Below are positions 6,241 to 48,972 of a stretch of DNA of 64,000 nt, one piece after another (position 1 is the stretch's first letter; each line of letters begins with the position of its first letter). This DNA is from a bacterium. Lineage in GTDB: Bacteria; Babelota; Babeliae; Babelales; RVW-14. Under the pieces are notes generated by a model. It searched no databases and had not been told where the DNA came from. It saw only the letters and a program-made list of their open reading frames with translations. The translations under genes were made by a program, and so were the position numbers. The stretch is taken from the NCBI GenBank assembly GCA_016699045.1, contig CP064957.1:409784-473783 (forward strand), written 5' to 3'.

Positions 6241-6333
6241 AATAAGACATCTAAGTTACAAAATTAGCACCTTTGCGTCTAATAGCAATTAAATTTAGGG
6301 ATTTAAGTACTATCAATTGTAGGGGGAACTACC

Positions 6334-7649: not shown

Positions 7650-7670
7650 CCAGATTTAAGGAATTTCATT

Positions 7671-10678: not shown

Positions 10679-10740
10679 AGAACGAATTTTATCTAACGTA
10701 AACTTAAGTAAGCTTCGTACACAAGTCCTGATAATTAAAA

Positions 10741-10771
10741 TGGCCCACAAGTTCTTAGAATTTGTGGGCCA
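10741..10771. terminator. Hairpin terminator, copy 2 of the typA-terminator palindrome (bidirectional)
   Basis: tggcccacaagttc / tta / gaatttgtgggcca, near-identical core to 9807..9839, flanked by an A-run and a T-run. It sits between the convergent HEPN gene and the antiporter gene. Confidence 0.6.
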
Positions 10772-10804
10772 TAATTTTTTTATAAGAAATAAAGATATTT
10801 AAAT

Positions 10805-21550: not shown

Positions 21551-22141
21551 TTGATAGAAAGACAACAGATGAATCGCATGATTTATATTTTATTGATCGC
21601 ATTTTTCAGCATAAAAACTCTTGTTGGAGCGGCAACAGAAACACATCAAAAAAAAGATTTTAAGACTACCATCTCGCTCAGCATGAAAACTATTCGCGAT
21701 TTTGATTTAAATTGCCTTCCTAAGACCACAAATAAAATAATGGACTTATTTGTCAAAATTCAACTGTTTATTGAAGAAGCAGATATTCACGGAAACAAAA
21801 AGTTATTTAAAAAGCTCAACATGGGGACAAGTTTTTCCCAAGAAGATTTGGACGATATAGATCTCCTCCCTCAACAATTTGAAAAGGACGTTACTCCAAA
21901 AAACAAAGAAAGTTTTTTGTATTTCATTAAAGCAATAAAAATTATCAAAAATAATTTCCATCTTTTACAAAAAAATATATCTCTAGCAGATTTTTTATCC
22001 TCTACAGAAAAAGAATGGCTCAACGATCAGATTGCAGAAATTATAGGTTTAGCAGGCACCATCCTCTACGGGGCTGAATTAGGGCGGAGAGTAGCAATAA
22101 TAAAGCTCAGATCCCAACAACAAAGTTTCCCTGCATCATGA
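21551..22141 (+). CDS. Hypothetical secreted protein, single-module paralog of 20517..21464
   Basis: Contains LFKKLNMGTSFSQEDLDDIDLLP and AIKIIKNNFHLLQKNI. Signal peptide at the internal start MNRMIYILLIAFFSIKTLVGAA (21569). The stop overlaps the mvaD start (ATGA). Confidence 0.55.
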   Translation: MIERQQMNRMIYILLIAFFSIKTLVGAATETHQKKDFKTTISLSMKTIRDFDLNCLPKTTNKIMDLFVKIQLFIEEADIHGNKKLFKKLNMGTSFSQEDLDDIDLLPQQFEKDVTPKNKESFLYFIKAIKIIKNNFHLLQKNISLADFLSSTEKEWLNDQIAEIIGLAGTILYGAELGRRVAIIKLRSQQQSFPAS

Positions 22142-23112
22142 AAAAGAACACCGTGTCTGTAACGACCACCGCCAACATCGCTCTCATAAAATATTGGGGC
22201 AAGCGCGACGAACGGCTCATGCTGCCAGCCAAAAGTAGTCTTTCTGTGGGACTTTCAGCACTCACAACGACAACAGAATTTGAAACAGCAGAGCACGACA
22301 AGATCGTAACAACAGAGCACCACCAATCAAATTTTGAAAAAAAAATTATGAACTTTGTCAACGAGTTACGCCGTGATTACGGTATTACCCAACCAATCAA
22401 AATCACCACACACAATCACTTTCCAACGGCAGCCGGCCTTGCTAGCAGCGCGAGTGGCTTTGCAGCTCTTACACTCGGTTTGAATAAATTATTTGATCTC
22501 AAACTCGGCAAGCAAGAACTTTCTCAACGCGCACGCTTGGGCTCAGGCTCTGCCGCTCGCTCAGTCCTTGGTGGCTTTGTTGTGTGGCATAAAGGCACTC
22601 TTGCAAACGGAAACAATTGCTTTGCCGAACAATTGTACGATGCCAACCATTGGCCAACATTACGCATTTTGGTGGTAGTCGTTGATGCATCAATAAAAAA
22701 AATGAGTTCACGAGACGGCATGCGCTTAACCGTTACCACCAGCCCATCATTTAACACCTGGTGCACAGAATCTGAAAAACGCATCAGTGCCATGCACCAA
22801 GCGATTGCAAAACGCGATTTAGAACAGGTCGGGATGTTAGCAGAAGCTGACTGGCACGGAATGTATAAGTCCATGCGCGATACACAACCACCACTCGAGT
22901 ATCTTTCAGGCGCATCGTGGGTAGTTATTAAAACGGTCCAGCGGCTGCGCGCTGCCGGCATACTCTGCTACTTTACCACCGACGCCGGCCCCAATGTTAA
23001 AATTTTGTGTGAAGAACGCGATGCGGCAATTATCGAACAAACACTCATGGCATTAAACGAAGTAAACAACATTATCCGTAATCGCATTGCATGTGAGCCA
23101 ATAATCACATGA
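22138..23112 (+). CDS. mvaD: Diphosphomevalonate decarboxylase
   Basis: TTTANIALIKYWGKRDERLMLPAKSSLSV and the GHMP motif PTAAGLASSASGFAAL, about 324 aa. Confidence 0.9.
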   Translation: MKKNTVSVTTTANIALIKYWGKRDERLMLPAKSSLSVGLSALTTTTEFETAEHDKIVTTEHHQSNFEKKIMNFVNELRRDYGITQPIKITTHNHFPTAAGLASSASGFAALTLGLNKLFDLKLGKQELSQRARLGSGSAARSVLGGFVVWHKGTLANGNNCFAEQLYDANHWPTLRILVVVVDASIKKMSSRDGMRLTVTTSPSFNTWCTESEKRISAMHQAIAKRDLEQVGMLAEADWHGMYKSMRDTQPPLEYLSGASWVVIKTVQRLRAAGILCYFTTDAGPNVKILCEERDAAIIEQTLMALNEVNNIIRNRIACEPIIT

Positions 23113-24185
23113 TTACCATTCACACGCCCGGCAAACTGATGCTCGCGGGCGAATGGAGCGTTCTTGAACCAGATAATCGCTGCATCGTTCTTCCTATCAA
23201 TCGTTTTGCAATCTGTCAGATTCAAGAAGCAACAGAATCAACACTATCAGCACCAACGCTGGGCATTGCCAATGCAATAATTACGTACGAAAATTATGCA
23301 TACAAAATTGCATCGAACGACTCACAACTTTTTATGGCACAAGCGGTACTCAACACCACATTGCGTTTTTTAAACGAACACAAGGTCACACTCAAAAAAT
23401 TTAATCTCACCATCAATACCGACCAATTTTTTTATCATCAACAAAAACTCGGCTTTGGCAGCAGTGCTGCCGTGTGCGTTGGCATAACACGCGCGTTACT
23501 TACGTTGCATCAATTTATTGCAGACGATCTTACTATTTTCAAACTAGCAACGCTGGCACATTATCACGCACAAAAAAAAATCGGCAGCGGGTTTGATATC
23601 GCTGCGTCAACGTACGCCCAGCCACTCAGCTACCAGCGCTTTGATGCCGCATGGCTTGCCACACAAAGAACCGATTCGATTAAAAAAATTATAGAACAAC
23701 CATGGCCAGGGCTGATCATCAAGCCAATCACACTGCCGCAAAAGTTTCATATGTGCGTCGGCTTCACCGGCGTAAGCGCTTCAACAACCACCCTTGCGCA
23801 GCGCATTTTACATTTTAAAAATGAGCATACCGAACAATACCAAAACTGGTGCACGACAACCAACAAAATTATTCTTGAACTAGAAACAGCTCTTGAAAAT
23901 AATAAACAACAAACAATTATTGATTTAATTAATCAACAACAAAAATCACTGCGAAATTTGTCAGATTTGTCTGACGCACAAATTGACATTCCCGTCATGA
24001 GTTCGCTTATTGCCGCGGCGCAAAAGCACGGCACTGGTGCCAAATTTTCTGGCGCTGGTGGAGGCGACTGCGTGATTGCAATCTGCTTTGAAAATAACCG
24101 CGAAAAAAACATCAATCACGAGTGGGCGGCAATGGGTATTAAAATTATCAACACGGTAATTTTGAACCCTATGAAAAAAAATTAA
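23109..24185 (+). CDS. mvaK2: Phosphomevalonate kinase (ERG8/MvaK2 type)
   Basis: HTPGKLMLAGEWSVLEP, GHMP motif KLGFGSSAAVCVG, C-terminal KFSGAGGGDCVIA. ATGA overlap with mvaD. Confidence 0.85.
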   Translation: MITIHTPGKLMLAGEWSVLEPDNRCIVLPINRFAICQIQEATESTLSAPTLGIANAIITYENYAYKIASNDSQLFMAQAVLNTTLRFLNEHKVTLKKFNLTINTDQFFYHQQKLGFGSSAAVCVGITRALLTLHQFIADDLTIFKLATLAHYHAQKKIGSGFDIAASTYAQPLSYQRFDAAWLATQRTDSIKKIIEQPWPGLIIKPITLPQKFHMCVGFTGVSASTTTLAQRILHFKNEHTEQYQNWCTTTNKIILELETALENNKQQTIIDLINQQQKSLRNLSDLSDAQIDIPVMSSLIAAAQKHGTGAKFSGAGGGDCVIAICFENNREKNINHEWAAMGIKIINTVILNPMKKN

Positions 24186-24240
24186 ATCTCTCTTAAAAAG
24201 TATCTACATTTACTTGACCAGAGCAGTTTTTTGTATCTTT

Positions 24241-24360
24241 CCGTTCGTGCTGAGCCTGTCGAAGCATCTGAACGGGCTCTTTTTTGTCTGTCTGAAAAGC
24301 CGAGAAGAATCGAAGCCCACTTCTATCCCGCCATACTTCGACAAGCTCAGCACGAGCGGG
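24241..24360. repeat. Pair of inverted extragenic hairpin elements (locus 1)
   Basis: Unit A is ccgttcgtgctgagcctgtcgaagcatctgaacgg (24241..24275). Unit B, inverted, is cccgccatacttcgacaagctcagcacgagcggg (24327..24360). The cores are complementary at 22/24 positions and both differences are transitions. Confidence 0.6.
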
Positions 24361-24594
24361 ATCATGATGCAAAAACAGAAAAATGTATGCAATCTTTTGG
24401 AATATACAAGTGTGGCCATCGACGGTGAGTAAAGGGTCAATCATTTAATTTACAAAAATCATAATGATCGAAAGAGCGTTATATAAACAGAAAACGTACC
24501 CCTACTTTTCTAAATAATATTCTTGGTGTAGCATAAAGAACGCTTGCTAGCCACCTGCCCTTATTTAATGTAATAATCAAACAAGGAGTTTTTC

Positions 24595-25344
24595 ATGTCA
24601 TTATTTTTCTATTGCCTCGTTATCGTCATTTTTGGCGTGGGGGTACTTTTTTACGTTCGCAGCACACAAGAAACATCAATACAGAAAACAACCACACGCG
24701 CACTGCGCACGTTTGGCGATCTCAAATATCCGTTTTCACTGCCAGCACTGCTGTATACTTACAATGCTCTTGAGCCACACATCGACGAAGCAACCATGAA
24801 TATTCATCACACCAAACATCATCAAGCGTACATCAACAGCTTGAATGAATGCCTTGAAAAACATCCAGAATTTCAAAGCAAGTCACTCGTTGATTTAATT
24901 GCTCACACCAAAACATTACCAGAAAGTTTACTCAAGGTCGTTGAAAATCATGGTGGTGGACATGCCAATCATTCAATGTTTTGGCTGATTATGTCACCAC
25001 AAGGCGGCGGACAACCTGAAGGCAAATTAGCACAAGCAATTGATAAGACATTTGGTTCTTTTGAAAATTTTAAGAAATTGTTTATTGAAGCAGCAAAAAC
25101 ACGTTTTGGCAGCGGTTGGGCATGGTTATGTGTTGATAGCGATAATAATTTGGTGATCACATCAACCGCCAATCAAGACAATCCCATGATGGATGGATTA
25201 ATCCCTGTTCTTGGCTTGGACATATGGGAACATGCGTATTATTTAAAATACCAAAACAAACGCATTGATTATGTTAACACGTGGTGGAATGTAATCAACT
25301 GGCCTGTGGTTGCTGAGTATTTTGCAAAGGCATGCTCAAAGTAA
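24595..25344 (+). CDS. Fe/Mn superoxide dismutase with N-terminal membrane anchor/signal extension
   Basis: FSLPALLYTYNALEPHIDEATMNIHHTKHHQAYINSLN and DIWEHAYYLKYQNKR are SOD core motifs. A ~45-aa extension contains the hydrophobic helix FFYCLVIVIFGVGVLFYV. Confidence 0.9.
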   Translation: MSLFFYCLVIVIFGVGVLFYVRSTQETSIQKTTTRALRTFGDLKYPFSLPALLYTYNALEPHIDEATMNIHHTKHHQAYINSLNECLEKHPEFQSKSLVDLIAHTKTLPESLLKVVENHGGGHANHSMFWLIMSPQGGGQPEGKLAQAIDKTFGSFENFKKLFIEAAKTRFGSGWAWLCVDSDNNLVITSTANQDNPMMDGLIPVLGLDIWEHAYYLKYQNKRIDYVNTWWNVINWPVVAEYFAKACSK

Positions 25345-26242
25345 CCGGCATCACAAAAAAATTTTGCGCTTGTAAAGCAGTAGCGACTTCGTGTTGCTGC
25401 TGCTTATTTTTTGTCAACGCAACAAGCGCCCCGCCAGCACCAGCTCCCGTCACTTTAACACTCAGCGCGCCGGCAGTAAGAGTCTTTTTGATAATAGCTT
25501 CAAGGTCCGCATTTGAAACACCAAGCTCTTTCAATAACTCATGATTCATGGTCATGCACATGCTCAATGCCGTAAGATTGCCTTGCTCAACAGCTTGCAC
25601 ACCCAACGAAAAAAGTTTCTCATAATCAGCACACAAGCGAGCAAAACATTCAGACCGCCTAGCACGATAACGTTGAACTGCAACCACTGCACCACTCGTT
25701 TGACTACGCATGCCACTGTCAATCACAACAAAGTGCAGGTCTGCTCGTGATCCAAAAAAATGTAGGTCTTTGCCTTTTTCAAAAATAAAAAAGCCACCAA
25801 ACGTTGCTGCCGTGTTATCAATCCCACTCGGGTTGCCGTGCGCTATTTTCTCAGCCTGCAAAGCAGCCATACTGATAGCATTATCATCAAGATTGAGATT
25901 ACATGTTTTGTTGATAGCTCGCGCAGTTGCCACCGCAGCTGCCGCACTGGAACCGGTACCGCCCGACATTACCACTAAATCGCCCGACAACGTAACTTCA
26001 AGCGATTGCGTGATGCCCAAAAAATTGATTATCGCTGATAAAAAATGATTCAGTTTTTCAGCCGAACATTTCAATGAATTATCAGCAAAACAACGCTGGT
26101 CAACAACGCGCGACGGACCACTAATAATTTTTGCAACCGCATGGGTTTGCTGCGGCAATGCAAATACAAGAGCTGGCAAGCCATACACAACAAAATGCTC
26201 ACCAAACAAAATTATTTTACCGTATCCACCCACATTACTCAT
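25295..26242 (-). CDS. mvk: Mevalonate kinase
   Basis: GKIILFGEHFVVYG, GHMP motif SGGTGSSAAAAVATARA, KVTGAGAGGALVAL. The 3' end overlaps the SOD gene by 50 nt (convergent). Confidence 0.9.
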   Translation of the reverse strand: MSNVGGYGKIILFGEHFVVYGLPALVFALPQQTHAVAKIISGPSRVVDQRCFADNSLKCSAEKLNHFLSAIINFLGITQSLEVTLSGDLVVMSGGTGSSAAAAVATARAINKTCNLNLDDNAISMAALQAEKIAHGNPSGIDNTAATFGGFFIFEKGKDLHFFGSRADLHFVVIDSGMRSQTSGAVVAVQRYRARRSECFARLCADYEKLFSLGVQAVEQGNLTALSMCMTMNHELLKELGVSNADLEAIIKKTLTAGALSVKVTGAGAGGALVALTKNKQQQHEVATALQAQNFFVMPVTLSMPLQNTQQPQAS

Positions 26243-26643
26243 GCGCGATGCTCCGGCACAAATTTAAGACCGTAATGAATGATGCCATTCAGTCCAGAAA
26301 CATAATATTTGCGCAGAGCTGCTCTTAAAGGCATACCAATGATCAGCTCTTCAAAATCAACATCAGCCAATTGCGTCATAATACGCGGACCATCTGCTAG
26401 TTGAACGAAACCAACACAGTACGGCTCATACATTTTATGCTCACGCGGCGCATGCATGACCTGCGTAAACGACAAGAGCGTCGCACAATGACTCAACTCA
26501 ACCGGCTTAAATTCCGTGCTTGCACACGTGCATAAATATTTTTTTGGATAAAATTTTTGATAACACACAGCACATTGCACCCCCATCAAGCGATATCGTT
26601 GAGGATACAAGCGCCAATCGATAATCGGACTATCGCTAAACAT
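26239..26643 (-). CDS. DUF35 Zn-ribbon/OB-fold protein (archaeal thiolase/HMG-CoA synthase scaffold type)
   Basis: RYRLMGVQCAVCYQKFYPKKYLCTCAST (rubredoxin-like ribbon) followed by the OB-fold segment PYCVGFVQLADGPRIMTQLADVDFEELIIGMPLRAALRKYY...IIHYGLKFVP. 4-nt overlap with mvk. Confidence 0.8.
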   Translation of the reverse strand: MFSDSPIIDWRLYPQRYRLMGVQCAVCYQKFYPKKYLCTCASTEFKPVELSHCATLLSFTQVMHAPREHKMYEPYCVGFVQLADGPRIMTQLADVDFEELIIGMPLRAALRKYYVSGLNGIIHYGLKFVPEHRA

Positions 26644-26701
26644 ACGCCACTCCTTATTTTTCTTGATCGATAAATATCACCAAAGTATAGGCGTATCTTT
26701 A

Positions 26702-26731
26702 TAAAAAAAAAGCCTGCGAATGCAATTCGCA
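26702..26731 (-). terminator. Rho-independent terminator downstream of ankyrin gene 26762..27265
   Basis: Stem tgcgaat / attcgca (26713..26729) with a 3-nt loop, followed on the minus strand by a run of T (complement of the A-run at 26703..26711). Confidence 0.5.
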
Positions 26732-26761
26732 AGCTCTCAATACATAACATTTCTATACAAT

Positions 26762-27265
26762 TTATTTATTACCAAAATTTTCAAGATCAGTAATCAACTC
26801 AGCAAGTTCTGCCGGCATAAGGCCTTCAAAATCTTTCTTTAAAACACTCGCCCCAGCATAAATTAGTGTTGCTTGAATTTCAACAAACTTGACTGCCACC
26901 GCAATATGCAAAGGCGTCCATCCACAACTTTTTTCTGGCTTATTAATAAAATAATGAAATTCGTCATCTGAAAGACATGCTCGCGCCCGTTTTATAAGAT
27001 TTTCTACCAATGAAAGATTTCCATCGTACACAGCACTATGAAGGATTGTAAGATCATTCTCGTTAGTTTCTAACAATAAAAAACGATCTCGTTCACGTGG
27101 CTCTAATTCGCGTCGCTCTAAAAAGGTCTGCTCAAAATTTTGCGAAAACTTTTGTATACAACCTTCAAAGTCTCCATACATTCGGCCCGTAAATTCTCGA
27201 CCAGCAAAAAGCAAACTCTGCGAACAAAGAAAAACAACTATCAATTTGACGTAAAAGTTACGCAT
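26762..27265 (-). CDS. Secreted ankyrin-repeat protein
   Basis: Signal peptide MRNFYVKLIVVFLCSQSLLFA. ANK-like repeats TILHSAVYDGNLSLVENLIKR and TPLHIAVAVKFVEIQATLIYAGASV. Confidence 0.8.
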   Translation of the reverse strand: MRNFYVKLIVVFLCSQSLLFAGREFTGRMYGDFEGCIQKFSQNFEQTFLERRELEPRERDRFLLLETNENDLTILHSAVYDGNLSLVENLIKRARACLSDDEFHYFINKPEKSCGWTPLHIAVAVKFVEIQATLIYAGASVLKKDFEGLMPAELAELITDLENFGNK

Positions 27266-27380
27266 AGAAAAATCCCTTGTTTCTTAGCTGTGTTTATAGA
27301 GTGAAGGCACATATTTTTTCCGTGCAAAAACTTTATCAAACAATGAGTTATTGTCAAACAACAAAAAATTATGGCATAAG

Positions 27381-27408
27381 AAAAGGCCGCTAAAAAAGCG
27401 GCCTTTTC
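27381..27408 (-). terminator. Hairpin terminator downstream of 27460..29256
   Basis: aaaaggccgc-taaaaaa-gcggcctttt: stem ggccgc (27385..27390) / gcggcc (27398..27403) flanked by A and T runs. Confidence 0.5.
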
Positions 27409-27459
27409 TTATTTTGCTAGCGAATTTAAAATTCACTCAAACTTAGTTAAAATTGGCGC

Positions 27460-29256
27460 TTATTTTTTGCCTTTTTTACCTTTGTATTCTTTCTTACCTT
27501 GGTATTTGTTGTATTTGTTGTATTTGCCACCTTGACCGCCTTGAGCTGCCATTGCTTGAAGATTTTTAACTTGGTCCATATAATACTGAATTGGCTGCAA
27601 CGCTGCCTGAACTAATGGATTATTTTGCGACTTAATATTCTTCAAATTTTGTAAATCTTCTTGTACTACAGTCACTACGGCAACTTGCTCATCAAGAGAT
27701 GTATTTGCAGCGTTTGGCATCATTTTAGCTACCACAGCAATATCAGTCAAAGTCTTAACAATCAACTGTGGCATTAGAGCAACAGTATTTCTCGCAGCCT
27801 GAATTGTTGGATTTTGATTTAAAGCAGCTTGAACTGATGAATCACTTGAAACCTCAGGAACAGCCAAAGCAGCATTAACCGCTTGAACTGCCGGTACTAC
27901 AGCAACCATATTTTTTACATTATTCCAATCCGAGATGTTAACTACTAGGCTGGCCAATGTTGCAATGTCAGTCAATGCTTGCGTAATTTGTTGAGCTGAC
28001 GCTGCTGATGTTCCAGAAACTTGAGTAACACCTTGTGGCACAACAAGAGCCGCTCTAATTGCTGGCGTCAAAGCAGCCACAACTGATGGATCATTAGCCA
28101 CAACCGGATCTGTTAAATCGTTGTTAACTGTTTGAACGGCTGACGTCATAGGAGCACCGGTAACTCCTGCATTAACAAGAACACTCAACGCAGCAATATC
28201 GCTCAATGTCCGCGTAACCGCTGGATTTGCAACTGGAGCTGGACCTGCCACTACGACTGGCGGCACTGGGTCAACAGAAACAACTACTGGAGGTACTGGA
28301 GTACCTGTTGGCGTTACTGGACTTACTGCAATCCTACCTTGTAAAGCAGTAATTGCTTGACTCAAAGCAGTTTGAATACTTGAATCCAACGATGGCATAC
28401 CTTGGAATGCTTGCAACGCATTAAGAGCTAATTGAGCTGGCGAAGAACCTGGAGCAGGGTTTGCCAACGCACTCAAAGCCGCTACTATTTTATCAGCTGC
28501 TACTTTTTCAGCTGCTGTTTTTTCAGCCAATATTTGAGCTGCCGCTTGTGTTGCTTGAGCTGCTGCTTGAGCTGCTTTATCTGCTGCTTGAGCTGCTTTT
28601 TCAGCTGCTGCTTGAGCTGCTGCCGTTGCATCAGGCGTTCCAGTCGAAGCTGCTACCGCCGCTGCTTGCGTCGCTGTCGCTGCTGCTTGCGTTGCAACCG
28701 CTGCTGCTTGTGTTGCTGCTGGCGTTCCTGTCGCTGCAGCTGTTACTGCTGCTTGTGTTGCTGCAGCTGCTGCTGTCGTTGCAGCTACTGCTGCTGCTGC
28801 CGACGTACCAGTCGCTGCTGATTCAGCTACTGCTTGCGTTGCCGAAGCTGCTGCTTGCGTTGCTGCTTGAGTTGCTGCCGCTGCTACCGGTGCCGAAGGA
28901 GTTGACCCCACTGCCGTCAAGCTTGCAATTACGGGAGTAATTGCTTTTTGATCAGCTTTTGATAACAATGGGGAAGAACTTAAAAATTGAAGCAATGTCT
29001 GTAATTGAGTAACACTCGCTGCATGTTCGCTTATCAATTGCATTAGCAAATTAGCAAACGCTTGCTGCGTTTGAGCAGTAAAAGTACCCGCGCTATTAGA
29101 AGTAGCCAACGATGTAACATTATTTATCAATGTACTATCAATCGATTGTCCACTGAATTGATTGATCGAATTTTGAACTGACGCATCATCTGCGTAAGCC
29201 ATGCTGGTTGCCAACATCGCAACCCCAGCAAGTGATTTTATAAACTTCTTATTCAT
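27460..29256 (-). CDS. Secreted Ala/Thr/Gln-rich repeat protein with Lys-rich C-terminal tail (family A, member 1)
   Basis: Signal peptide MNKKFIKSLAGVAMLATSMAYA. Conserved module AGTFTAQTQQAFANLL...SSSPLLSKADQKAITPVI. ~138-aa A/T/Q tract. Three ~65-aa LTDIA..L..LV repeats. Tail GGKYNKYNKYQGKKEYKGKKGKK. Confidence 0.6.
   Translation of the reverse strand: MNKKFIKSLAGVAMLATSMAYADDASVQNSINQFSGQSIDSTLINNVTSLATSNSAGTFTAQTQQAFANLLMQLISEHAASVTQLQTLLQFLSSSPLLSKADQKAITPVIASLTAVGSTPSAPVAAAATQAATQAAASATQAVAESAATGTSAAAAVAATTAAAAATQAAVTAAATGTPAATQAAAVATQAAATATQAAAVAASTGTPDATAAAQAAAEKAAQAADKAAQAAAQATQAAAQILAEKTAAEKVAADKIVAALSALANPAPGSSPAQLALNALQAFQGMPSLDSSIQTALSQAITALQGRIAVSPVTPTGTPVPPVVVSVDPVPPVVVAGPAPVANPAVTRTLSDIAALSVLVNAGVTGAPMTSAVQTVNNDLTDPVVANDPSVVAALTPAIRAALVVPQGVTQVSGTSAASAQQITQALTDIATLASLVVNISDWNNVKNMVAVVPAVQAVNAALAVPEVSSDSSVQAALNQNPTIQAARNTVALMPQLIVKTLTDIAVVAKMMPNAANTSLDEQVAVVTVVQEDLQNLKNIKSQNNPLVQAALQPIQYYMDQVKNLQAMAAQGGQGGKYNKYNKYQGKKEYKGKKGKK
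28483..28896 (-). repeat. Low-complexity GCTGC/TTG-rich DNA encoding the A/T/Q tract
   Basis: Imperfect reiteration of gctgc(t/c)gc(t/a)tg(a/c/t)g units. All frames on the opposite strand are also open, giving spurious Cys/Leu-rich ORFs. Confidence 0.7.
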
Positions 29257-29276
29257 GATTAAATTCTCCTATTTTT

Positions 29277-30074
29277 TTAATTTTGATCAGCGGATTGATC
29301 ATCTACAACTGAGTCTTCTGTCTCGGCATTGTCTGCTGCTACAGTTGTACCTGATGTGGCAGTAGTGGTACTTTTGGTTACTTTTTTCCCTTTACCTTTT
29401 TTACGTATTTTTTTGCCTGTTTTTTGACTACCAACATTGCCTACAGCTTTTTTACCAGCTTTTTTCACTTTGCCTACTTTAACTTTTCCGGCACGAGCTT
29501 TCTTAATATTCTTAGCGACTTGAGCTTTCGTAGAAACTTGTTTCTTACCAACGGAAGGTTGCCCCAACGTTGGAACATTTTGCATAGCTTGTGGCAAATT
29601 CGGTATCAATGTCGAGATAACATATTGTTGTTGTGCTTGTGCCAAAAGAGGCGAAGTACTTGCTTGTACTAACAAATTGCGCATTGCAGTTGTAAGATCA
29701 TTATGTTCTTTTAATACTTGTGCAACGCCACTACCAACCGCACGATGCGTTTTACCGGTAAAATCGCCAGCATCTGCTTCTGAGGCCAATTTAACCAATT
29801 CATTTATTTTATCAGCGTGCGATTTGTTACTTAAATCTTGCAATGACTTTTGAATGCTTTCATCGGTAAGATCTTTGGTAGAGGCTTTTGCCGAACCAGC
29901 CGGTTTAACAGCGACTAGCTTTTTAACTTTAACTACCTTCTTAGCTTTTTTCTTACCCGTTTTACCCGTCTTGACTGTCTTGACTGTCGAGTCTGATTTA
30001 GCTGCAAACATGGCACTTGATGCCAACGTAAGGGCTATTAACAAGAGCCCACTCAAACTTATCTTCTTCATCAT
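29277..30074 (-). CDS. Secreted Lys-rich protein (family A, member 2)
   Basis: Signal peptide MMKKISLSGLLLIALTLASSAMFA. Module AGDFTGKTHRAVGSGVAQVL...STSPLLAQAQQQYVISTLIPNL. Lys-rich blocks after the signal peptide and near the C-terminus, plus an acidic end. Confidence 0.6.
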   Translation of the reverse strand: MMKKISLSGLLLIALTLASSAMFAAKSDSTVKTVKTGKTGKKKAKKVVKVKKLVAVKPAGSAKASTKDLTDESIQKSLQDLSNKSHADKINELVKLASEADAGDFTGKTHRAVGSGVAQVLKEHNDLTTAMRNLLVQASTSPLLAQAQQQYVISTLIPNLPQAMQNVPTLGQPSVGKKQVSTKAQVAKNIKKARAGKVKVGKVKKAGKKAVGNVGSQKTGKKIRKKGKGKKVTKSTTTATSGTTVAADNAETEDSVVDDQSADQN

Positions 30075-30274
30075 CGATCTCCTTATTATTTCGATTCCTC
30101 AGCTTTCGCTGTAATCTCTTCCACTTCCTTTACTACTTTCTTACTTATTTACTTGTCGCTCATAATGAGATGCTTTGGTAACAGCGTAAGATTCTGTTCC
30201 TGCACCAAAGTTTAAAAAATAGCCTGCACTATGTTTCCACTCATCTCATATCTCCTCTTTTCATCATAATTCAT

Positions 30275-31549
30275 TTAATTCACACTATTCGTTTTAGGAT
30301 TTTTTTTCATCATCTTTTTGCCAATCTTGGCTCCCTTTCGAGCGCCACTTTTTTGCTGTTGAGCTTTTTTCCGTTGTTTTTTAGTGCCTACTCTTTTGCC
30401 AGGCTTGGTTGGAGTACCCGCTTGATTATCACGTACTACCACCACAGGCTTGATCTGCTCCGGTATCATGGTCGAAGAAACGTACGTTTGTTGGTCTTTA
30501 GTTAAAAGTGGAGACGTACGCGCTGCATTAAGCAAATCAAGTGTTTTCTTTGCAATATCTTTACTTTGCGTAGCAAGCGCTACCAATGCATCCGCATATG
30601 CTTGCTGCGTTGCGGTACTAAAAGCACCCGCACTAGCCCCTGCTGTTAATTTTGACAAAAAGCGCAACCGATCATCAAGCAACGGCTGTTTGCTAATACT
30701 TGCCAGCAAGCGCGTTACGCGGTCATCAGTCAATACTTGCTGCGTCACGTCTGCCGACTCAACCATTGATGCATTTGCTACCGTCGCAACCGCTGGCGAT
30801 ACACCAAGCACATTTGCTTGTTTTAAATCTTTGAATTTGTCCAACGCTGGCAATAATTGCTGGCTTACATACTGACGACGCACCTTATCCAGCAAAGGTA
30901 CATTGCCTTGCAAAACGTTTCGCATCAACTCACGCAATTGCGCTTGTGCCTGATCAGACTGACTGGCGCGTTGATCGTACAACTGAACAAGTGATTTATA
31001 AAACATATCACGAATGCCAGCATTAAGAACCACTCGCAAGCCACCCTTGGTAGAAAAGTTAGTTGGATTTGCAAGCGCTGAAAGACTTTGCAAACTATCC
31101 TGAAAGGTAGTTTTTTGTGCTGCCGCCATAACAAGACTCTTTAAAAGTCTTGGCACCATGGTTTTTGCCACATACTTTTGCTGGACCGGAGAAAGCAATG
31201 AACTCGCTTGTGCTCGAGAAAGAATCGGCAACATGGCAAGCTGCGTACCTTCAGTTGTAGCCAATTTGTTGGTAGCATCAAGTAAATTACCAAAATCAGT
31301 TTTGGTTCTAGCATTAAATGTCGCCCTACCAGAACGGTCAAGCAACAAAGATAGCGCTTGAATTTTCTGATCCACAACTGCCATAGCCCCAATTTTGGTA
31401 AAATAACTCTTAATAAGGGTATCAATATCTGCCTGACTTGCAAAATTGTCTGGAATATTAAAAGCCGCAAAAGCAACGGAATGCATTGTCAGCACAGCTA
31501 CCGCCAGCAACACACACACTTTCCTTACCATTGAGCACAATGTCGTCAT
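30275..31549 (-). CDS. Secreted protein (family A, member 3) with 2-3 copies of the family module and a Lys-rich tail
   Basis: Signal/anchor VCVLLAVAVLTMHSVAFA. Modules ...SSLLSPVQQKYVAKTMVPRL, ...VPLLDKVRRQYVSQQLLPAL and AGAFSTATQQAYADALVAL...RTSPLLTKDQQTYVSSTMIPEQ. Tail GKRVGTKKQRKKAQQQKSGARKGAKIGKKMMKK. Confidence 0.6.
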   Translation of the reverse strand: MTTLCSMVRKVCVLLAVAVLTMHSVAFAAFNIPDNFASQADIDTLIKSYFTKIGAMAVVDQKIQALSLLLDRSGRATFNARTKTDFGNLLDATNKLATTEGTQLAMLPILSRAQASSLLSPVQQKYVAKTMVPRLLKSLVMAAAQKTTFQDSLQSLSALANPTNFSTKGGLRVVLNAGIRDMFYKSLVQLYDQRASQSDQAQAQLRELMRNVLQGNVPLLDKVRRQYVSQQLLPALDKFKDLKQANVLGVSPAVATVANASMVESADVTQQVLTDDRVTRLLASISKQPLLDDRLRFLSKLTAGASAGAFSTATQQAYADALVALATQSKDIAKKTLDLLNAARTSPLLTKDQQTYVSSTMIPEQIKPVVVVRDNQAGTPTKPGKRVGTKKQRKKAQQQKSGARKGAKIGKKMMKKNPKTNSVN

Positions 31550-31680
31550 GATACTCCTTCCTTATTATTACCGCCTACTACTTACAAAAATATCAAATAG
31601 CAATTACTAATTGCAATGATTTTAGTAAAAATTATAAGAACGAAAGCATTTTCAAGAATAAAAGCCTCAAGAATAAGCAA

Positions 31681-31709
31681 TTGACAGAGGCCCGAATATC
31701 CATTACATT
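31681..31709 (+). promoter_or_regulatory. Candidate sigma70-type promoter of the HMGR-HMGCS-thiolase operon
   Basis: TTGACA (31681..31686), 17-nt spacer, TACATT (31704..31709), about 55 nt upstream of the GTG at 31764. Confidence 0.3.
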
Positions 31710-31763
31710 CCACGATATTCTTCAAATTAGAGATAAACAAGCAAGCCAAAATAGACTGATCTC

Positions 31764-33041
31764 GTGGTGGTTACATTGAAAGACAAAAACAGTCGAATCC
31801 CTGCTTTTCATAAAAAATCCCTCAGCGAGCGTTTAAAATACGTCGAAACCTTTGCCAACCTTACTCATCAAGAAATCAAAGAGCTAGAGTCGGGGGCCTC
31901 CCTTCCCATTCCTCTCGCCGAAAAAATGAGCGAAAATGTCATCTCAGTCATGTCTTTGCCTTTTGGCGTCGCCACCAATTTCATGATCAACGGTCAAGAT
32001 TATCTGATTCCAATGGTCACTGAAGAACCAAGCGTCATTGCAGCCGCCTCGCACGGCGCCAAACTCGCGCGAAATGCCGACGGTTTTACCACTAGTTGCG
32101 GCTATCCACTCATGATTGGCCAAATATTGTTAGCAAATATATCCAATTCTGCTAACGCACTCGAAGCTTTGAACAACAAAAAAAGAGAGCTCCTTGCGCT
32201 TGCCAACCAACTCGACCCCATACTGCTCGAGCATGGCGGAGGGGCAGTAGATCTGACTGCTCAAGAGCTTGTACTCAACAAAGACCTATGCCTTTCTATA
32301 AAATTGCACGTGAATGTCGGTGATGCCATGGGCGCCAACATTGTTAACACCATGACAGAATTTATTGCACCACTCATTCAAAAAGTATGCGGTGGCCTGG
32401 TCAGATTGTGTATTGTTTCAAATTTTTCTCCCGATCGCTTAGTCCACGTTACCGGCACCTGGGACCAAGAAACGCTGGGGTTACCAACTATCGATGCTAT
32501 CATACAAGCCAGTGCCTTTGCAGCAGCCGATATCTATCGAGCCGTAACACACAATAAAGGAATTATGAACGGCGTTATTGCGGTCGCGTTGGCCACCGGC
32601 AACGATACCCGGGCCATCGAAGCAGGAGCACATGGGTACGCCGCTCTCACGGGCCGCTACCAACCACTTAGCTGGTATGAAAAAAATGAAGCAGGCGATT
32701 TAGTGGGACACCTAGCAATGCCCCTACCCATCGCAACCGTTGGCGGAATAACTAAAAGTCATCCAACTGCCTGTATCGCCAGAAAAATTCTTACCATTAC
32801 CAGCGCACAAGAACTTGCCGGCGTTACTGCAGCTGTAGGACTGGCACAAAACTTTGCCGCCCTGCGTGCATTGGTAACTGAAGGAATTCAGCACGGGCAC
32901 ATGCGACTGCACAGCCAAAACATTGCCATTACCGCGGGCGCTACCGGCCAGGCTATCGACAATATTGCCCACCAAATGATCACAAAGAAAAAAATTTCAG
33001 TTGCGCATGCGCGCACACTTTTGACGAAAGGGTCCCTATGA
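31764..33041 (+). CDS. mvaA: HMG-CoA reductase, class II
   Basis: ENVISVMSLPFGVATNFMINGQDYLIPMVTEEPSVIAAASHGAK, VGDAMGANIVNTM, GNDTRAIEAGAHGYA, EGIQHGHMRLH. About 425 aa with no membrane domain. GTG start. Confidence 0.9.
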   Translation: MVVTLKDKNSRIPAFHKKSLSERLKYVETFANLTHQEIKELESGASLPIPLAEKMSENVISVMSLPFGVATNFMINGQDYLIPMVTEEPSVIAAASHGAKLARNADGFTTSCGYPLMIGQILLANISNSANALEALNNKKRELLALANQLDPILLEHGGGAVDLTAQELVLNKDLCLSIKLHVNVGDAMGANIVNTMTEFIAPLIQKVCGGLVRLCIVSNFSPDRLVHVTGTWDQETLGLPTIDAIIQASAFAAADIYRAVTHNKGIMNGVIAVALATGNDTRAIEAGAHGYAALTGRYQPLSWYEKNEAGDLVGHLAMPLPIATVGGITKSHPTACIARKILTITSAQELAGVTAAVGLAQNFAALRALVTEGIQHGHMRLHSQNIAITAGATGQAIDNIAHQMITKKKISVAHARTLLTKGSL

Positions 33042-34090
33042 TTGGTGGCATTATGGGCTACGGGGCTTACATTCCACGCTACCGAATCAGCGTTGAAAAA
33101 CTCGCACAAGCTCTTGACGACAATGCTACACAGATTATCAACTCACTAGCAATTGCCGAAAAATCAGTCCCGGGCAAAGATGAAGATAGCCTCACGATGG
33201 TCGTTGCTGCGGCAAAAAATGCTTTAAAACGGGCAACGTTACCAGCACCATCACTGCAAGCAGTTTATGTTGGCAGCGAAAGCCATCCCTACGCCGTCAA
33301 ACCTTCCGCAACAATTTTAGGTGAAGCTTTAGGGATTGGCACCAATTATATGGCTGCCGATTTTGAATTTGCTTGCAAAGGCGGCACCGCTGCCCTGCAA
33401 GCCGCTCTTGGTGTGGTTAAGGCTGGGATGGCCTCGTACGCGTTGGCCGCCGGCAGCGATACCGCTCAAGCAAAGCCAACAGATATTTTAGAATATGCCG
33501 CCGCCGCTGGGTCCGCCGCTTTTATTGTTTCAAACAATCTTGATGAAGCGTGCGCAATTGTTGAACGAACATTATCGTACAGTTCAGACACGCCAGATTT
33601 TTGGCGTCGTTCATCAGCTGCCTACCCAGAACATGGCGGACGTTTTACTGCACAACCAGCTTACTTTGCGCATGTTGTGGCGGCAACACAACAACTTTTA
33701 ACGGCACACAACCTCAAACCAACCGACATCGATCATGTTATTTTTCATCAACCAAATGGTAAATTCCCCGTGATGGCCGCCAGGCAACTTGGTTTTTCTC
33801 GGGCCCAACTGGCCAACGGCTTACTTGTTGAAAAAATGGGCAACTCGTACAGCGCTAATTCACTTTTGGGTCTTACGGCGGTACTGGACAACGCACTACC
33901 CAACCAAACTATTCTATTAGTTAGTTATGGCAGCGGCAGCGGCTGCGATGCTTTCGTAATTAAAACAACTGAAAAAATTTTATCGGTCCAAAATAAAGCA
34001 CGTCGCACCCAAGAATATTTGGCAGAAAAAAAGTATATTTCCTACGCAACATATCTTCATCATTTAACCTGCTTGTACGGTGCATTATGA
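33038..34090 (+). CDS. HMG-CoA synthase, short archaeal type
   Basis: 350 aa. GIMGYGAYIPRYRI, KDEDSLTMVVAAAKNAL, VGSESHPYAVKPSA, EFACKGGTAAL (catalytic Cys region). ATGA overlap with mvaA. Confidence 0.85.
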   Translation: MIGGIMGYGAYIPRYRISVEKLAQALDDNATQIINSLAIAEKSVPGKDEDSLTMVVAAAKNALKRATLPAPSLQAVYVGSESHPYAVKPSATILGEALGIGTNYMAADFEFACKGGTAALQAALGVVKAGMASYALAAGSDTAQAKPTDILEYAAAAGSAAFIVSNNLDEACAIVERTLSYSSDTPDFWRRSSAAYPEHGGRFTAQPAYFAHVVAATQQLLTAHNLKPTDIDHVIFHQPNGKFPVMAARQLGFSRAQLANGLLVEKMGNSYSANSLLGLTAVLDNALPNQTILLVSYGSGSGCDAFVIKTTEKILSVQNKARRTQEYLAEKKYISYATYLHHLTCLYGAL

Positions 34091-35244
34091 ACATTGCGAT
34101 TATCGGCATTGGCCAAACAAAATTCGGTGAATTGTGGGAAAGTTCGCTGCAAGATTTACTTGCATACAGCCAACTTGCAGCCCTCAAAGATGCTAATATT
34201 TCAGCACAAGAAATTGAAGCACTGGTGGTCGGCAACATGTGTGGAGAAAGTACCGGAGGTCAAGTACATCTTGGCGCACTAGCTGCACATATTTTAAATC
34301 TCAATGTTCCAAGTATGCGCGTTGAAGGAGCCTGTGCATCAGGTGCGTTAGCACTGCAACAAGGTATAGCACTTATTGAAGCCGGCAAGGCAGAAGTAGT
34401 ACTAGTCAGCGGCGTTGAAAAATTAACTGATGTTGATGCCGGCACACTGGCAACGAGTATGATTGGCGCCAGCTTACAGGAAACAGATCATTTTGTGGGC
34501 CTTACTTTCCCAAGCCTTTTTGCACTCATCACGCGTTTATATTTTAATGAGCACGGCATTACGCGTAAGCACCTTGCACACGTGAGCGTTAAAAATCATT
34601 TGCACGCAAGCTTAAACCCCAACGCACATTTTACCAAAGACATTTCTCTTGAAACGGCGCTACACGCACCAATGGTCGCCGACCCACTGGGTCTTTTTGA
34701 CTGCGCACCAGTTTCTGACGGCGCTGCATCGATCATTATCACAACACCAGAATTTGCGAAACGCAAAGGCATCAAGCCGGTGTTGATCATTGGCTCTGGC
34801 GTTGCCACTGATTCATTAATGTTTGGCGAACGCACGACACTCACATCTTTTGTCGCCACAAAATTAGCCGCACATAGTGCTTATCAACAAGCTGGCATTG
34901 AGCCGGAAAATATTGATCTGGTTGAAGTGCACGATGCATTTACCATGGCCGAAATTATGGCGCTTGAAGATTTAGGTTTTTTTGAACCGGGACAAGCAGC
35001 TTACGCAACACAAAAAGGCACCACAAAATTCAATGGCACCCTACCCGTCAACATGTCTGGTGGACTCAAAGCACAAGGACATCCCGTTGGCGCCACTGGC
35101 CTTGCACAAATTATTGAACTTATCAGACAGCTACGCGGCACTGCCGGCAAACGACAAATTGCCAATGCACGCACTGGCCTTGCACACAACATGGGCGGCA
35201 TTGGCTCTACCGTAGCGGTTCATATTCTTGCAAGTAACCATTGA
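34087..35244 (+). CDS. Acetyl-CoA C-acetyltransferase (thiolase), archaeal/SCP-x-like type
   Basis: MNIAIIGIGQTKFGE, RVEGACASGALAL (active-site Cys), NMSGGLKAQGHPVGATG, NMGGIGS. ATGA overlap with the HMGCS gene. Confidence 0.85.
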   Translation: MNIAIIGIGQTKFGELWESSLQDLLAYSQLAALKDANISAQEIEALVVGNMCGESTGGQVHLGALAAHILNLNVPSMRVEGACASGALALQQGIALIEAGKAEVVLVSGVEKLTDVDAGTLATSMIGASLQETDHFVGLTFPSLFALITRLYFNEHGITRKHLAHVSVKNHLHASLNPNAHFTKDISLETALHAPMVADPLGLFDCAPVSDGAASIIITTPEFAKRKGIKPVLIIGSGVATDSLMFGERTTLTSFVATKLAAHSAYQQAGIEPENIDLVEVHDAFTMAEIMALEDLGFFEPGQAAYATQKGTTKFNGTLPVNMSGGLKAQGHPVGATGLAQIIELIRQLRGTAGKRQIANARTGLAHNMGGIGSTVAVHILASNH

Positions 35245-35340
35245 CCAGCACTTCTTTTTTGGCATAATTTTTTAGCGTGCTATAATCCAGTCATAACAAA
35301 AGATCGAAATCATTTTTTTTAAAATTATGGAGAATCTGTT

Positions 35341-35982
35341 ATGAAGAAAACATTTCACTACTCGCTAATTTTTGCTGTAATATTTGCCAGCACCGCCATA
35401 GCAGCAGGAACTGCTACAGAAAAAGAATTTTCCATCTGCCCAAGCATTCCCGATGACTTTTGCCTTGAAGACAAACAACTGATCACGGCGGTAAAAAAAG
35501 GGCTTCACGAAGCATTAGAACGAATTCTTCTTTTCCATAAAAATGTTAATCTTGAATATGAAGAAGGCTCGTTGCTTCATCATGCAGCGAGTGAAGGACA
35601 TCTTAAATGTGCTGAATTACTCGTTAATAACGGTGCTGATATTTCTGCCACCACACCACACGGCGGCACACCTCTCCATTGCGCTGCATGGAAAGGCTAC
35701 ACAGACATCGTACAATTTCTTTTGAATAATAATGCACCAATTAATGCAATTAATTTCATTGAACAAGCAACACCATTACATTGGGCAGCAAAACAAAATC
35801 ACACTAATTGCATAGCGCTGCTTCTAGCTGCCGGCGCCAACCCAACACTAAAAAATGCCACAAACAAAACAGCAGCAGATTACGCAGAAGAACTCGGTCA
35901 CCAAGAGCTTGCAGCCCTACTACGCACAGCAGAAATAACATGGCAAAAAGAACATAAGCAAAAAGCGTGTACCATATCATGA
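35341..35982 (+). CDS. Secreted ankyrin-repeat protein
   Basis: Signal peptide MKKTFHYSLIFAVIFASTAIAAG. ANK repeats SLLHHAASEGHLKCAELLVNNGADI, TPLHCAAWKGYTDIVQFLLNNNAPI, TPLHWAAKQNHTNCIALLLAAGANP. Confidence 0.9.
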   Translation: MKKTFHYSLIFAVIFASTAIAAGTATEKEFSICPSIPDDFCLEDKQLITAVKKGLHEALERILLFHKNVNLEYEEGSLLHHAASEGHLKCAELLVNNGADISATTPHGGTPLHCAAWKGYTDIVQFLLNNNAPINAINFIEQATPLHWAAKQNHTNCIALLLAAGANPTLKNATNKTAADYAEELGHQELAALLRTAEITWQKEHKQKACTIS

Positions 35983-36677
35983 AAAAAATATTATTAAAAA
36001 TAGGCTTACTGTTTGGCATATTTTTTAGCTTTGGATCGTTATTCTCAACAAACATTTCAGATATAGACATGTTAATGTCGCTCAATTTTAATCAAAAAAT
36101 AGATACACTCAATCTACTCATTAAAACAACACCAAAAGACGCTTTAAATGAAGCAATACAACAAGATATTAAAGCTATTTTTATGAGTCTTTTTTACGAA
36201 CTGCCAACACAAGGGCCAGAAGAAAAACTTGCGTTCAAAAAACTCTTGCTCAATCTTTTGCAGTCACCACTTCCATCGCACGAGCAGCGAGATTACATAA
36301 CCAAATTGGTACTGCCACTCATAGACCCTTCAGGCAATTATGTTATTCCAACGCCAGAAACGCAACGCGCTCTACCAACAACAGAAGAAAAACAAGAACC
36401 GACAGTAAAAGATTCTGCCGAAGAACAAGGACGCATTTTGCAGGAACCACTCATGGTTCCTGTCATTACCAAAGCATGGGTGGTAAATGAAGATGGCAAC
36501 CGTGAACAAATAACTGATATTACCTTTAGAACTATCGCACCAAAAACAGCGCAACCAACATCAGAAAAAAAAACAACGGGTGCCCCGCCAAGTATCATAC
36601 CAACGCCAGAAGAAGGCGTGCGCTTTGGCAAAGGTCGCAGGCCACTGAGCAAACGAGCAGGCATTTATCGCTGCTGA
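35979..36677 (+). CDS. Hypothetical secreted protein, possible distant relative of family A
   Basis: The ATG at 35979 overlaps the ankyrin stop (ATGA). Signal peptide MKKILLKIGLLFGIFFSFGSLFS. The segment LLQSPLPSHEQRDYITKLVLPLI resembles the family A motif SPLL..DQQ.Y....(I/V)P. Basic C-terminal end. Confidence 0.45.
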   Translation: MKKILLKIGLLFGIFFSFGSLFSTNISDIDMLMSLNFNQKIDTLNLLIKTTPKDALNEAIQQDIKAIFMSLFYELPTQGPEEKLAFKKLLLNLLQSPLPSHEQRDYITKLVLPLIDPSGNYVIPTPETQRALPTTEEKQEPTVKDSAEEQGRILQEPLMVPVITKAWVVNEDGNREQITDITFRTIAPKTAQPTSEKKTTGAPPSIIPTPEEGVRFGKGRRPLSKRAGIYRC

Positions 36678-36705
36678 TATTATTTCACAAAAAACAAGGC
36701 CCATC

Positions 36706-37089
36706 ATGAAAAACGATACCAACACAACACTCCGAGAACTCAGCGAACTTACACAAAAATTCATCAACGAACGCGACTGGGCAAAGTACCACAGCCCAAA
36801 AGATATATCTGCCAGTTTAAGCGTTGAGGCTGGCGAACTTTTGGAATTATTTTTGTGGCGCTCAACCGAAAAAATTTATACAGAGCTTGAACAAAATGAA
36901 AAATTCAAAACTCAAGTTAAAGAAGAACTAGCCGATATTTTATTTTGCTGCCTAAATTTTGCGAACCTTACCAACATTGATATATCACAAGCATTTAGAG
37001 ACAAACTCGCCAAGTCGGCACTCAAATATCCGACATCGCAAGTCAACACAGTTGAAAAATATTTTGCACTCAAATACAAGGATAAATGA
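36706..37089 (+). CDS. MazG-like nucleotide pyrophosphohydrolase (dCTPase/DCTPP1-like)
   Basis: LRELSELTQKFINERDWAKYHSPKDISASLSVEAGELLELFLW and EELADILFCCLNFANLTNIDISQAFRDKLAKSALKYP are the two metal-binding helices of the all-alpha NTP-PPase fold. Confidence 0.8.
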   Translation: MKNDTNTTLRELSELTQKFINERDWAKYHSPKDISASLSVEAGELLELFLWRSTEKIYTELEQNEKFKTQVKEELADILFCCLNFANLTNIDISQAFRDKLAKSALKYPTSQVNTVEKYFALKYKDK

Positions 37090-48962: not shown

Positions 48963-48972
48963 CAACAAGACA

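Follow-up and report, generated by a model that had tools for sequence, protein, structure and literature searches.

Rod-forming helical-bundle repeats of giant proteins are exemplified by spectrin repeats and by the FIVAR-GA repeats of Staphylococcus Ebh. A precedent of another kind is the mycobacterial heparin-binding hemagglutinin (HBHA), in which a hydrophobic segment (residues 5-18) is followed by a coiled coil (24-109), a linker (110-159) and KKAAPA and KKAAAKK repeats (160-198), and whose Lys/Ala/Pro-rich tail binds heparan sulfate (PMC3293801). We describe here a family of proteins that recalls both, encoded within a stretch of 64,000 nucleotides (hereafter the window) from a bacterium of the lineage Babelota, Babeliae, Babelales, RVW-14 (GenBank assembly GCA_016699045.1, contig CP064957.1, positions 409,784 to 473,783 of the forward strand). 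Three consecutive minus-strand open reading frames (ORFs) of 598, 265 and 424 amino acids (aa), named A598, A265 and A424, and a fourth one nearby, A236, share a previously undescribed module. The Dependentiae are widespread obligate parasites of protists and, ankyrin proteins aside, almost nothing is known of the means by which they interact with their hosts. A large part of their exported proteome is unannotated, and one such block can now be recognised as a coherent repeat-domain family. The genes and their modules are as follows.

27460..29256, minus strand: A598 gene, ORF of 598 aa
28921..29187, minus strand: A598 module, predicted five-helix bundle, aa 24-112 (BLASTP 8e-11 to A265; HMM E 5e-14)
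29277..30074, minus strand: A265 gene, ORF of 265 aa
29592..29864, minus strand: A265 module, aa 71-161 (HMM E 6e-17; modelled with AlphaFold2)
30275..31549, minus strand: A424 gene, ORF of 424 aa
31142..31423, minus strand: A424 module 1, aa 43-136 (HMM E 8e-18)
30839..31150, minus strand: A424 module 2, aa 134-237 (HMM E 2.5e-15)
30455..30727, minus strand: A424 module 3, aa 275-365 (HMM E 4e-20)
35967..36677, plus strand: A236, fourth family member (HMM E 5e-4 at the first pass, 6e-16 after iteration)
36042..36326, plus strand: A236 module

The three consecutive ORFs lie exactly where a sequence-only reading of this DNA had placed them, and its proposal that they constitute a tandem paralogous family with a common module was borne out. 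Pairwise BLASTP with compositional adjustment gave E-values of 4e-12 for A265 and A424, 8e-11 for A598 and A265 and 3e-5 for A598 and A424, and A265 also matched two more places in A424 (E 2e-5 and 0.003). A first hidden Markov model (HMM) made of four module copies and run on all ORFs of the window detected A236, which had been overlooked. No other ORF of the window matched the module. With the iterated HMM, the copies in A598, A265 and A424 reached per-copy E-values of 5e-14 to 4e-20. The aligned module is about 92-100 aa long rather than about 55 aa as first proposed. A598, A265 and A236 carry one module each and A424 carries three, so that the supposed extra partial copies of A424 are in fact full ones. 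The module is rich in Ala, Leu, Gln, Thr and Asn, with almost no Cys, and its similarity among the proteins is not a low-complexity artefact.

The failure to recognise any known family in the initial reading was also confirmed. NCBIfam release 20 gave no match to any of the four proteins, whereas Pfam-A (newest models 2025) returned sub-threshold noise for A598, A265 and A424 and nothing for A236. Over 66 module copies, no Pfam family was matched by more than two, and a profile search of PDB chains had a best E of 0.21. No description of the module was found in full-text literature searches. Both objections that the initial reading had raised against itself, a low-complexity artefact and a domain already described, were examined, and neither held. 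Judged by sequence comparison, the module defines a domain family not described before.

A profile of eight module copies was searched exhaustively against 1.84 billion (1.84e9) representative proteins and retrieved 112 relatives within a cut-off of E<=1e-3. Of these, 64 also passed E<=1e-10 and 15 passed E<=1e-30, and HMM E-values went down to 1e-134 in other genomes. Three rounds of local HMM iteration delineated 571 module copies in 118 sequences (the 112 relatives together with P0002, P0114 and duplicate records of proteins from the window itself), with as many as 31 in a single protein. Family members range from single-module proteins up to proteins of 2.4-4.7 thousand aa with 20-31 modules. 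In the profile search, where matched stretches per protein numbered 26 at most, P0003 (2,897 aa) had 26, P0011 (4,728 aa) had 25 and P0009 (2,938 aa) had 21. The tandem arrays have a median period of 100 aa and a median gap of 6 aa, and in the largest members the modules occupy almost the entire length. Among the 30 relatives looked up, four were labelled 'Candidatus Babeliales' or 'Candidatus Dependentiae', three 'bacterium' and the rest metagenome proteins; no other phylum was encountered. On present evidence, the family is provisionally restricted to the Dependentiae (Babeliales). A word-index homology search retrieved no relative with the alignment of 66 modules and two with P0003, the index being too coarse for this family, and a related-locus search in GTDB genomes with A424 as query returned one distant locus.

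Modelling of the A265 module by AlphaFold2 with a 66-sequence alignment of diverse copies predicted a five-helix bundle (predicted local distance difference test, pLDDT, 91.5; predicted template modelling score, pTM, 0.82). Full-length A424, modelled with a 31-row alignment, reached a pLDDT of 82, with predicted disorder at residues 248-274 and in the tail (367-424). A predicted helix at residues 121-144 leads from module 1 into module 2 without a break (pLDDT 96-97 at the boundary). Neighbouring modules would therefore be connected by a common helix, like the units of rod-forming repeats, and multi-module members are predicted to form rods. The best-conserved columns of the module are P89 (84%), L75 (80%), L20 (75%), Q79 (63%) and Q37 (61%), corresponding to a hydrophobic core and helix caps, and this pattern reads as that of a structural repeat rather than of an enzyme or catalytic site. 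Foldseek comparison of a single module with the PDB gave nothing significant. The best neighbours (E 1.6 at best, TMq 0.53-0.59) were fragments of the SF3B1 HEAT repeats, of designed armadillo proteins and of the SAMD4A PHAT domain, all with E >1. HEAT and armadillo proteins are mostly cytosolic and eukaryotic, and the family has no Pfam HEAT or Arm match. No match was found for the single module in BFVD, and full-length A424 had template modelling scores of at most 0.25 against the PDB.

Two further elements, a signal peptide and a polycationic tail, recur around the modules. In the window they take the following positions.

29191..29256, minus strand: A598 signal peptide, MNKKFIKSLAGVAMLATSMAYA followed by DD, read from the sequence
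27463..27531, minus strand: A598 basic tail, GGKYNKYNKYQGKKEYKGKKGKK, net charge +9 across the last 23 aa
29889..29999, minus strand: A265 N-terminal Lys-rich stretch directly after the signal peptide, aa 26-62, net charge +12
29373..29552, minus strand: A265 C-terminal Lys-rich stretch, aa 175-234, net charge +24
30278..30454, minus strand: A424 polybasic tail, aa 366-424, net charge +18 over the last 59 aa, predicted disordered (pLDDT <50 at aa 384-419)

The signal peptides announced for A598, A265 and A424 were recovered when the n-, h- and c-regions were read by eye and hydropathy was calculated. Each protein begins with a basic n-region, a hydrophobic h-region of 12-18 residues and an AxA-like c-region (AYA before DD, MFA before AK and AFA before AF, respectively), and the lipobox [LVI][ASTVI][GAS]C is absent from all three. 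A signal-peptide-like N-terminus is found in about 80% of all family members (81% of Met-initiated proteins pass the hydropathy test), and the first module often starts near residue 30. Of the Lys-rich tails ascribed to the three proteins, those of A598 and A424 do end basic. A265 has such a stretch (+24) followed by an acidic, Thr-rich end of 31 aa with a net charge of -7. A265 is thus composed of a signal peptide, a Lys-rich stretch, the module, a second Lys-rich stretch and the acidic end, and A424 of a signal peptide, modules 1 and 2 fused via one predicted helix, a disordered linker, module 3 and the polybasic tail. In A236 the signal peptide is followed by the module, a conserved C-terminal region and an Arg/Lys end, and translation probably starts at the ATG at 35979. 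A net charge of at least +8 in some 30-aa window after the last module was found in 70% of 84 members, as against 5% of a background set of 102 ORFs drawn from these loci, which are raw ORFs rather than curated genes (Mann-Whitney p = 3e-15).

The same plan recurs in a distant genome, GCA_043822925.1, with the order signal peptide, module and KKxAKK-type tail. At locus L003 of this genome, two adjacent small genes each encode a signal peptide and one or more modules, and the first protein carries the tail ...KKTAAKKTVKKVVKKKTVKKLAAKKPAAKK. The protein P0035 from the same genome combines a signal peptide, a Tectonin propeller, a Pro-rich linker, two modules, an AADKAAADK helix and a poly-Lys tail, and this metagenome-assembled genome (MAG) also encodes P0013, with 24 modules. 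Three independent Tectonin fusions were identified (P0035, P0073 and P0103), always with the head first, then the module(s) and then the basic tail, and P0011 has a MIR domain N-terminal to most of its modules. Among other large members, P0003 and P0006 lack any Pfam domain, and P0009 gave only a sub-threshold chance match. Stand-alone genes adjoin family members at two unrelated metagenome or MAG loci: the gene 6781-7821 (minus strand) at L002, next to the 2,897-aa member P0006 (8001-16694), and the genes 5006-7036 and 10259-11422 at L004. These neighbours are Tectonin-domain and Methyltransf_FA/HC2-type genes, an arrangement that hints at a recurring lectin partnership.

Comparison with known systems points to two analogues, one for each end of the size range. 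The layout of HBHA, with an N-terminal hydrophobic segment, about 85-90 residues of helical domain, then a linker and a polycationic tail, is also that of the small members (such as A265 and the L003 proteins). The order of helical module then cationic tail is present in the window proteins, with net charges of +9 to +24, and the tail of the L003 protein, KKTAAKKTVKKVVKKKTVKKLAAKKPAAKKPIAKK, is closely alike in style. No Pfam, NCBIfam or PDB match indicates homology, in searches that included no direct alignment to the HBHA sequence. Moreover, HBHA forms a dimeric coiled coil whereas the family module is a predicted five-helix bundle repeating in tandem, and the family proteins carry cleavable-looking Sec signal peptides in a diderm parasite of protists. 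HBHA may be regarded as the closest functional analogue, in the sense of a protein that would work in a similar way and not of a family member. For the large members, the nearest analogues are spectrin- or Ebh-type rods, with which they share tandem helical bundles of about 100 residues joined by a predicted continuous helix, in arrays of 20-31 units that fill exported proteins of several thousand aa. Spectrin and Ebh units differ in having three helices instead of five. As to membership, Foldseek against the PDB gave no match, and Pfam spectrin models only sub-threshold hits to single sequences (E 0.055 and 0.0056).

The tails of the histone H1-like bacterial proteins Chlamydia Hc2, AlgP and PhaF are comparable in their Lys/Ala-rich composition to those of the family. 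Those histone H1-like proteins reside in the cytoplasm, bound to the nucleoid or to storage granules, whereas the family has signal peptides and, in some members, lectin heads. The Pfam HC2 family gave a sub-threshold match in P0073, a recorded match in a neighbour of P0035 and none in the window proteins. The N-terminal signal peptides and the lack of an HC2 match in the window proteins speak against an Hc2-type nucleoid protein. The description of an autotransporter or a giant RTX adhesin of a type I secretion system does not fit either, given that P0003, P0006, P0009 and P0011 have no relevant Pfam domain, that modules fill nearly all of the length and that signal peptides are present.

The family, its repeat architecture, its predicted fold and its association with the tail are direct observations. 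From the distribution of the family, the predicted structure, the export signals, the tails, the lectin-type fusions and the genomic setting, we tentatively favour the view that these are exported surface or adhesion (stalk) proteins acting at the parasite-host interface, with a tail that anchors them electrostatically to polyanions. The Sec signal peptide would direct export from the cytoplasm, to a final location that we infer to lie beyond the periplasm, at the surface. The helical module may provide a stalk or a scaffold for protein interaction, and rods would be built in tandem arrays by the final helix of each module extending into the first of its successor. The polycationic tail could then attach to the lipopolysaccharide of the bacterium itself or to glycans or membranes of the host surface, in the way that the HBHA tail binds heparan sulfate. 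Some relatives add lectin-type heads (Tectonin, MIR).

Several points weigh against the surface-adhesion view. In a diderm, a Sec signal peptide alone delivers only to the periplasm, and no outer-membrane anchor, beta-barrel or signature of a type I or type V secretion system was found with Pfam in the window proteins and the largest relatives scanned. The evidence for signal peptides consists only of visual inspection and crude hydropathy, and the comparison of tails drew on the uncurated ORF background described above. Lys-rich tails also occur on other exported orphan ORFs (ORFans) of the window (47752-49926), and basic tails may be a general trait of the exported proteins of this genome rather than a specific feature of the family. 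AT-rich genomes also favour Lys. Finally, the restriction of the family to the Dependentiae is provisional because a phylum-level label was present in just four of the 30 relatives looked up.

Two observations from the window may be mentioned alongside these points. The ORFans at 47752-49926 form a third tandem family of overlapping or adjacent plus-strand genes (47752-48423, 48405-48962 and 48928-49926; 223, 185 and 332 aa) with signal-peptide-like N-termini, a common N-terminal region ...IPYLLFQEIHEKIV..., at least two Lys-rich ends and no Pfam match. The gene 53856-55097 (minus strand) encodes an ATPase of the type II secretion system/type IV pilus kind (Pfam T2SSE 3.9e-126), with an M23 peptidase carrying an N-terminal hydrophobic segment nearby (52092-53309, plus strand). 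An outer-membrane export or pilus route is therefore possible in this genome, which would count in favour of the surface-adhesion view.

A bolder version, which we regard as improbable, holds that the members with 20-31 modules are Sec-dependent alpha-helical surface fibres with a length on the order of 100 nm held by their polycationic tails, without a known outer-membrane anchor, and that the short forms of the window serve as accessory or capping subunits. If true, such fibres would represent a type of appendage new to diderm surfaces, serving in the capture or invasion of protist hosts. In any case, the family now has a confident predicted fold, a recurrent plan (signal peptide, optional lectin head, modules and polycationic tail) and very large members. 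It offers annotators a new profile, and experimentalists a set of candidate surface or adhesion proteins with an electrostatic-anchor hypothesis. The novelty lies in the domain family and not in the kind of protein, since rods of helical repeats and adhesive tails rich in Lys are already known, and no principle is overturned.

The alternatives to surface adhesion depend in part on the genomic setting of the cluster. The proposal that it sits between two halves of the mevalonate pathway proved correct, with MVD, PMK, MVK and a DUF35-type OB protein on one side (22138-26643) and HMGR, HMGCS and thiolase on the other (31764-35244). HMGCS and thiolase in company with a DUF35-type OB protein make up an archaeal-style arrangement. 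A236 is located just beyond the thiolase gene and a signal-peptide-bearing ankyrin gene. Two ankyrin genes border the family members.

26762..27265, minus strand: ankyrin-repeat protein with signal peptide, flanking the cluster (Pfam Ank 4.8e-10)
35341..35982, plus strand: ankyrin-repeat protein with signal peptide, immediately upstream of A236 (Pfam Ank_2 8e-27)

Apart from orthologues, the modules A598.1, A265.1 and A424.3 are mutually nearest, with 30-38% identity, which fits their origin by an old local tandem duplication. The A236 module belongs to a separate branch with its orthologues P0034 and P0062 (89% and 48% module identity). A265 has an orthologue in P0023, a metagenome protein of 213 aa with 93% module identity and without the acidic end. 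The nearest homologue of A424, whose own sequence is identical to the NCBI hypothetical protein IPF37_01955, is P0002 from a Candidatus Babeliales MAG, with 57-64% module identity and about 130 extra Thr/Gly-rich residues inserted after module 2 and before module 3. Among orthologues, modules are conserved and tails are not. For A598, the sole database match in the profile search was the identical sequence P0030.

A syntenic locus (L001) was found in the Babeliales genome GCA_019749895.1 (JAIEPG010000005.1, 1-21557), which shares superoxide dismutase, MVK, DUF35-type OB, thiolase, HMGCS and HMGR genes with the window. Judged by this synteny, the source of the window would be a Babeliales-type member of the Dependentiae. 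At L001, HMGR, HMGCS, thiolase and the A424 orthologue form a block of opposite orientation to that in the window. The A598 and A265 slots are occupied by four unrelated Ser-rich ORFans with signal peptides, and next comes an array of at least 12 ankyrin genes. Because of this inversion and replacement, the cluster sits in a variable island of exported proteins within conserved mevalonate genes. Another partial family member lies at the end of L001 (21349-21555). In Chromulinavorax, a cultured member of the phylum, signal peptides are present on 44% of coding sequences and on 78% of ankyrin proteins (PMC6561590).

This setting, which is in keeping with the surface-adhesion view, also lends some weight to the possibility that the proteins are instead soluble effectors delivered into the host cell, in which the module would bind a host protein and the tail would act as a nuclear or nucleolar localisation signal or attach to acidic phospholipids or nucleic acids of the host. 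Around the cluster are ankyrin genes with signal peptides, whose products are the presumed effectors of the phylum. The island varies between close relatives, and the tails evolve fast while the modules are conserved (A265 versus P0023; A424 versus P0002). Clusters of Lys and Arg read from the sequence, such as KKQRKK, look like classical nuclear localisation motifs, but these are trivial in any Lys-rich sequence. We consider a role as effectors unlikely, since members of 2.4-4.7 thousand aa made almost wholly of modules are hard to imagine being translocated, the Tectonin and MIR heads point toward extracellular glycan binding, and no translocation system for folded effectors was identified in this analysis.

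The proteins could also be periplasmic envelope scaffolds or spacers comparable to TolA domain II or Lpp, with rods in or across the periplasm and basic tails bound to peptidoglycan or to anionic membrane leaflets. Helix-formers together with Pro-rich linkers recall the TolA and TonB spacers, and both A598 (AAEKAAQAADKAA) and P0035 (AADKAAADKAA) contain such elements. A signal for Sec only, with no outer-membrane export signature among the proteins scanned, would also be in keeping with a periplasmic location. Arrays of 20-31 modules, however, would far outreach the width of the periplasm, lectin heads are unexpected there, and no N-terminal membrane anchor of the TolA kind is present. Scaffolds of this type are usually single-copy and conserved, whereas this family occurs in several copies, has undergone tandem duplication and differs from one relative to another. 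A periplasmic role is accordingly given little credence.

Still less probable by far is a functional tie to the mevalonate or isoprenoid genes, for example in the handling of isoprenoid lipids of the envelope. It is suggested by the location of the cluster between the two gene blocks and by the A424 orthologue of L001, which is also divergently adjacent to HMGR despite the inversion. Yet the members at L002, L003 and L004 have no mevalonate neighbours, and in the Babeliales relative the places of A598 and A265 are taken by unrelated ORFans. The two genomes with the HMGR linkage are close relatives in which it may be simply inherited, and the predicted fold suggests no lipid pocket. The last alternative, a compositional artefact of Ala/Gln/Leu-rich sequence and no true family, could appeal to the biased composition (24% Ala in A598) and to the simple DNA repeats of the region, but it is refuted by the composition-adjusted BLASTP and HMM E-values given above, by the 89-93% identity of orthologous modules, by the confident AlphaFold2 model and by the location of the simple repeats outside the module.

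A598 is the most composite of the window proteins, with a signal peptide, one module, an Ala/Thr/Gln tract, a Pro/Val-rich linker, three LTDIA repeats and a Lys/Tyr/Gly-rich tail. Its remaining parts are listed below.

28507..28920, minus strand: Ala/Thr/Gln low-complexity tract, aa 113-250, terminating in a AAEKAAQAADKAAQ-type helix-former
28216..28326, minus strand: Pro/Val-rich linker, aa 311-347, read from the sequence
27532..28221, minus strand: three LTDIA repeats of about 75 aa each, aa 346-575, an orphan repeat distinct from the module

The Ala/Thr/Gln tract has the length of about 138 aa previously attributed to it, and overlaps DNA tandem repeats at 28481-28878 (periods 12, 21, 33 and 87). 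Two Cys/Leu-rich plus-strand ORFs over A598 (28432-28821 and 28461-28940) were rejected, since they arise only from the GCN-rich repeat of the other strand. The three LTDIA repeats noticed at the outset are real (alignment z 3.4-5.6 versus shuffles), with a period of 75-77 aa and not about 65 aa. They are not diverged modules, as hhalign gave a probability of 0.2% and the module HMM had no match there, and no relatives of the repeats or of the C-terminal half of A598 were found among the cluster, family and locus sequences gathered. A265 lies upstream of A598, and the two are probably co-transcribed because only 20 bp separate them. Scans of 26600-36800 for promoter and terminator consensus sequences remained at chance level (22 found versus 17.4 expected, and 14 versus 13.0), and no RNA gene was detected within or near the cluster by Rfam and ARAGORN.

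Three other observations concern the window. The Fe/Mn superoxide dismutase gene (24595-25344, plus strand), whose 3' end overlaps the convergent MVK gene (25295-26242, minus strand) by 50 bp, encodes an N-terminal hydrophobic extension of about 45 aa, which suggests that the enzyme is exported or membrane-anchored. Immediately upstream of the MVD gene, two plus-strand ORFs of 315 and 196 aa (20517-21464 and 21551-22141) with signal-peptide-like N-termini share the motif PKLGLGPSFRQQEIDELD / KKLNMGTSFSQEDLDDIDLL and make up a second small paralogue family with no Pfam match. Finally, the minus-strand gene 39332-43237 encodes a 1,301-aa signal-peptide protein rich in Cys, Trp and Asp, which lacks any Pfam domain and contains an internal duplication (...LYRHGN...L.P.CG... 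blocks).

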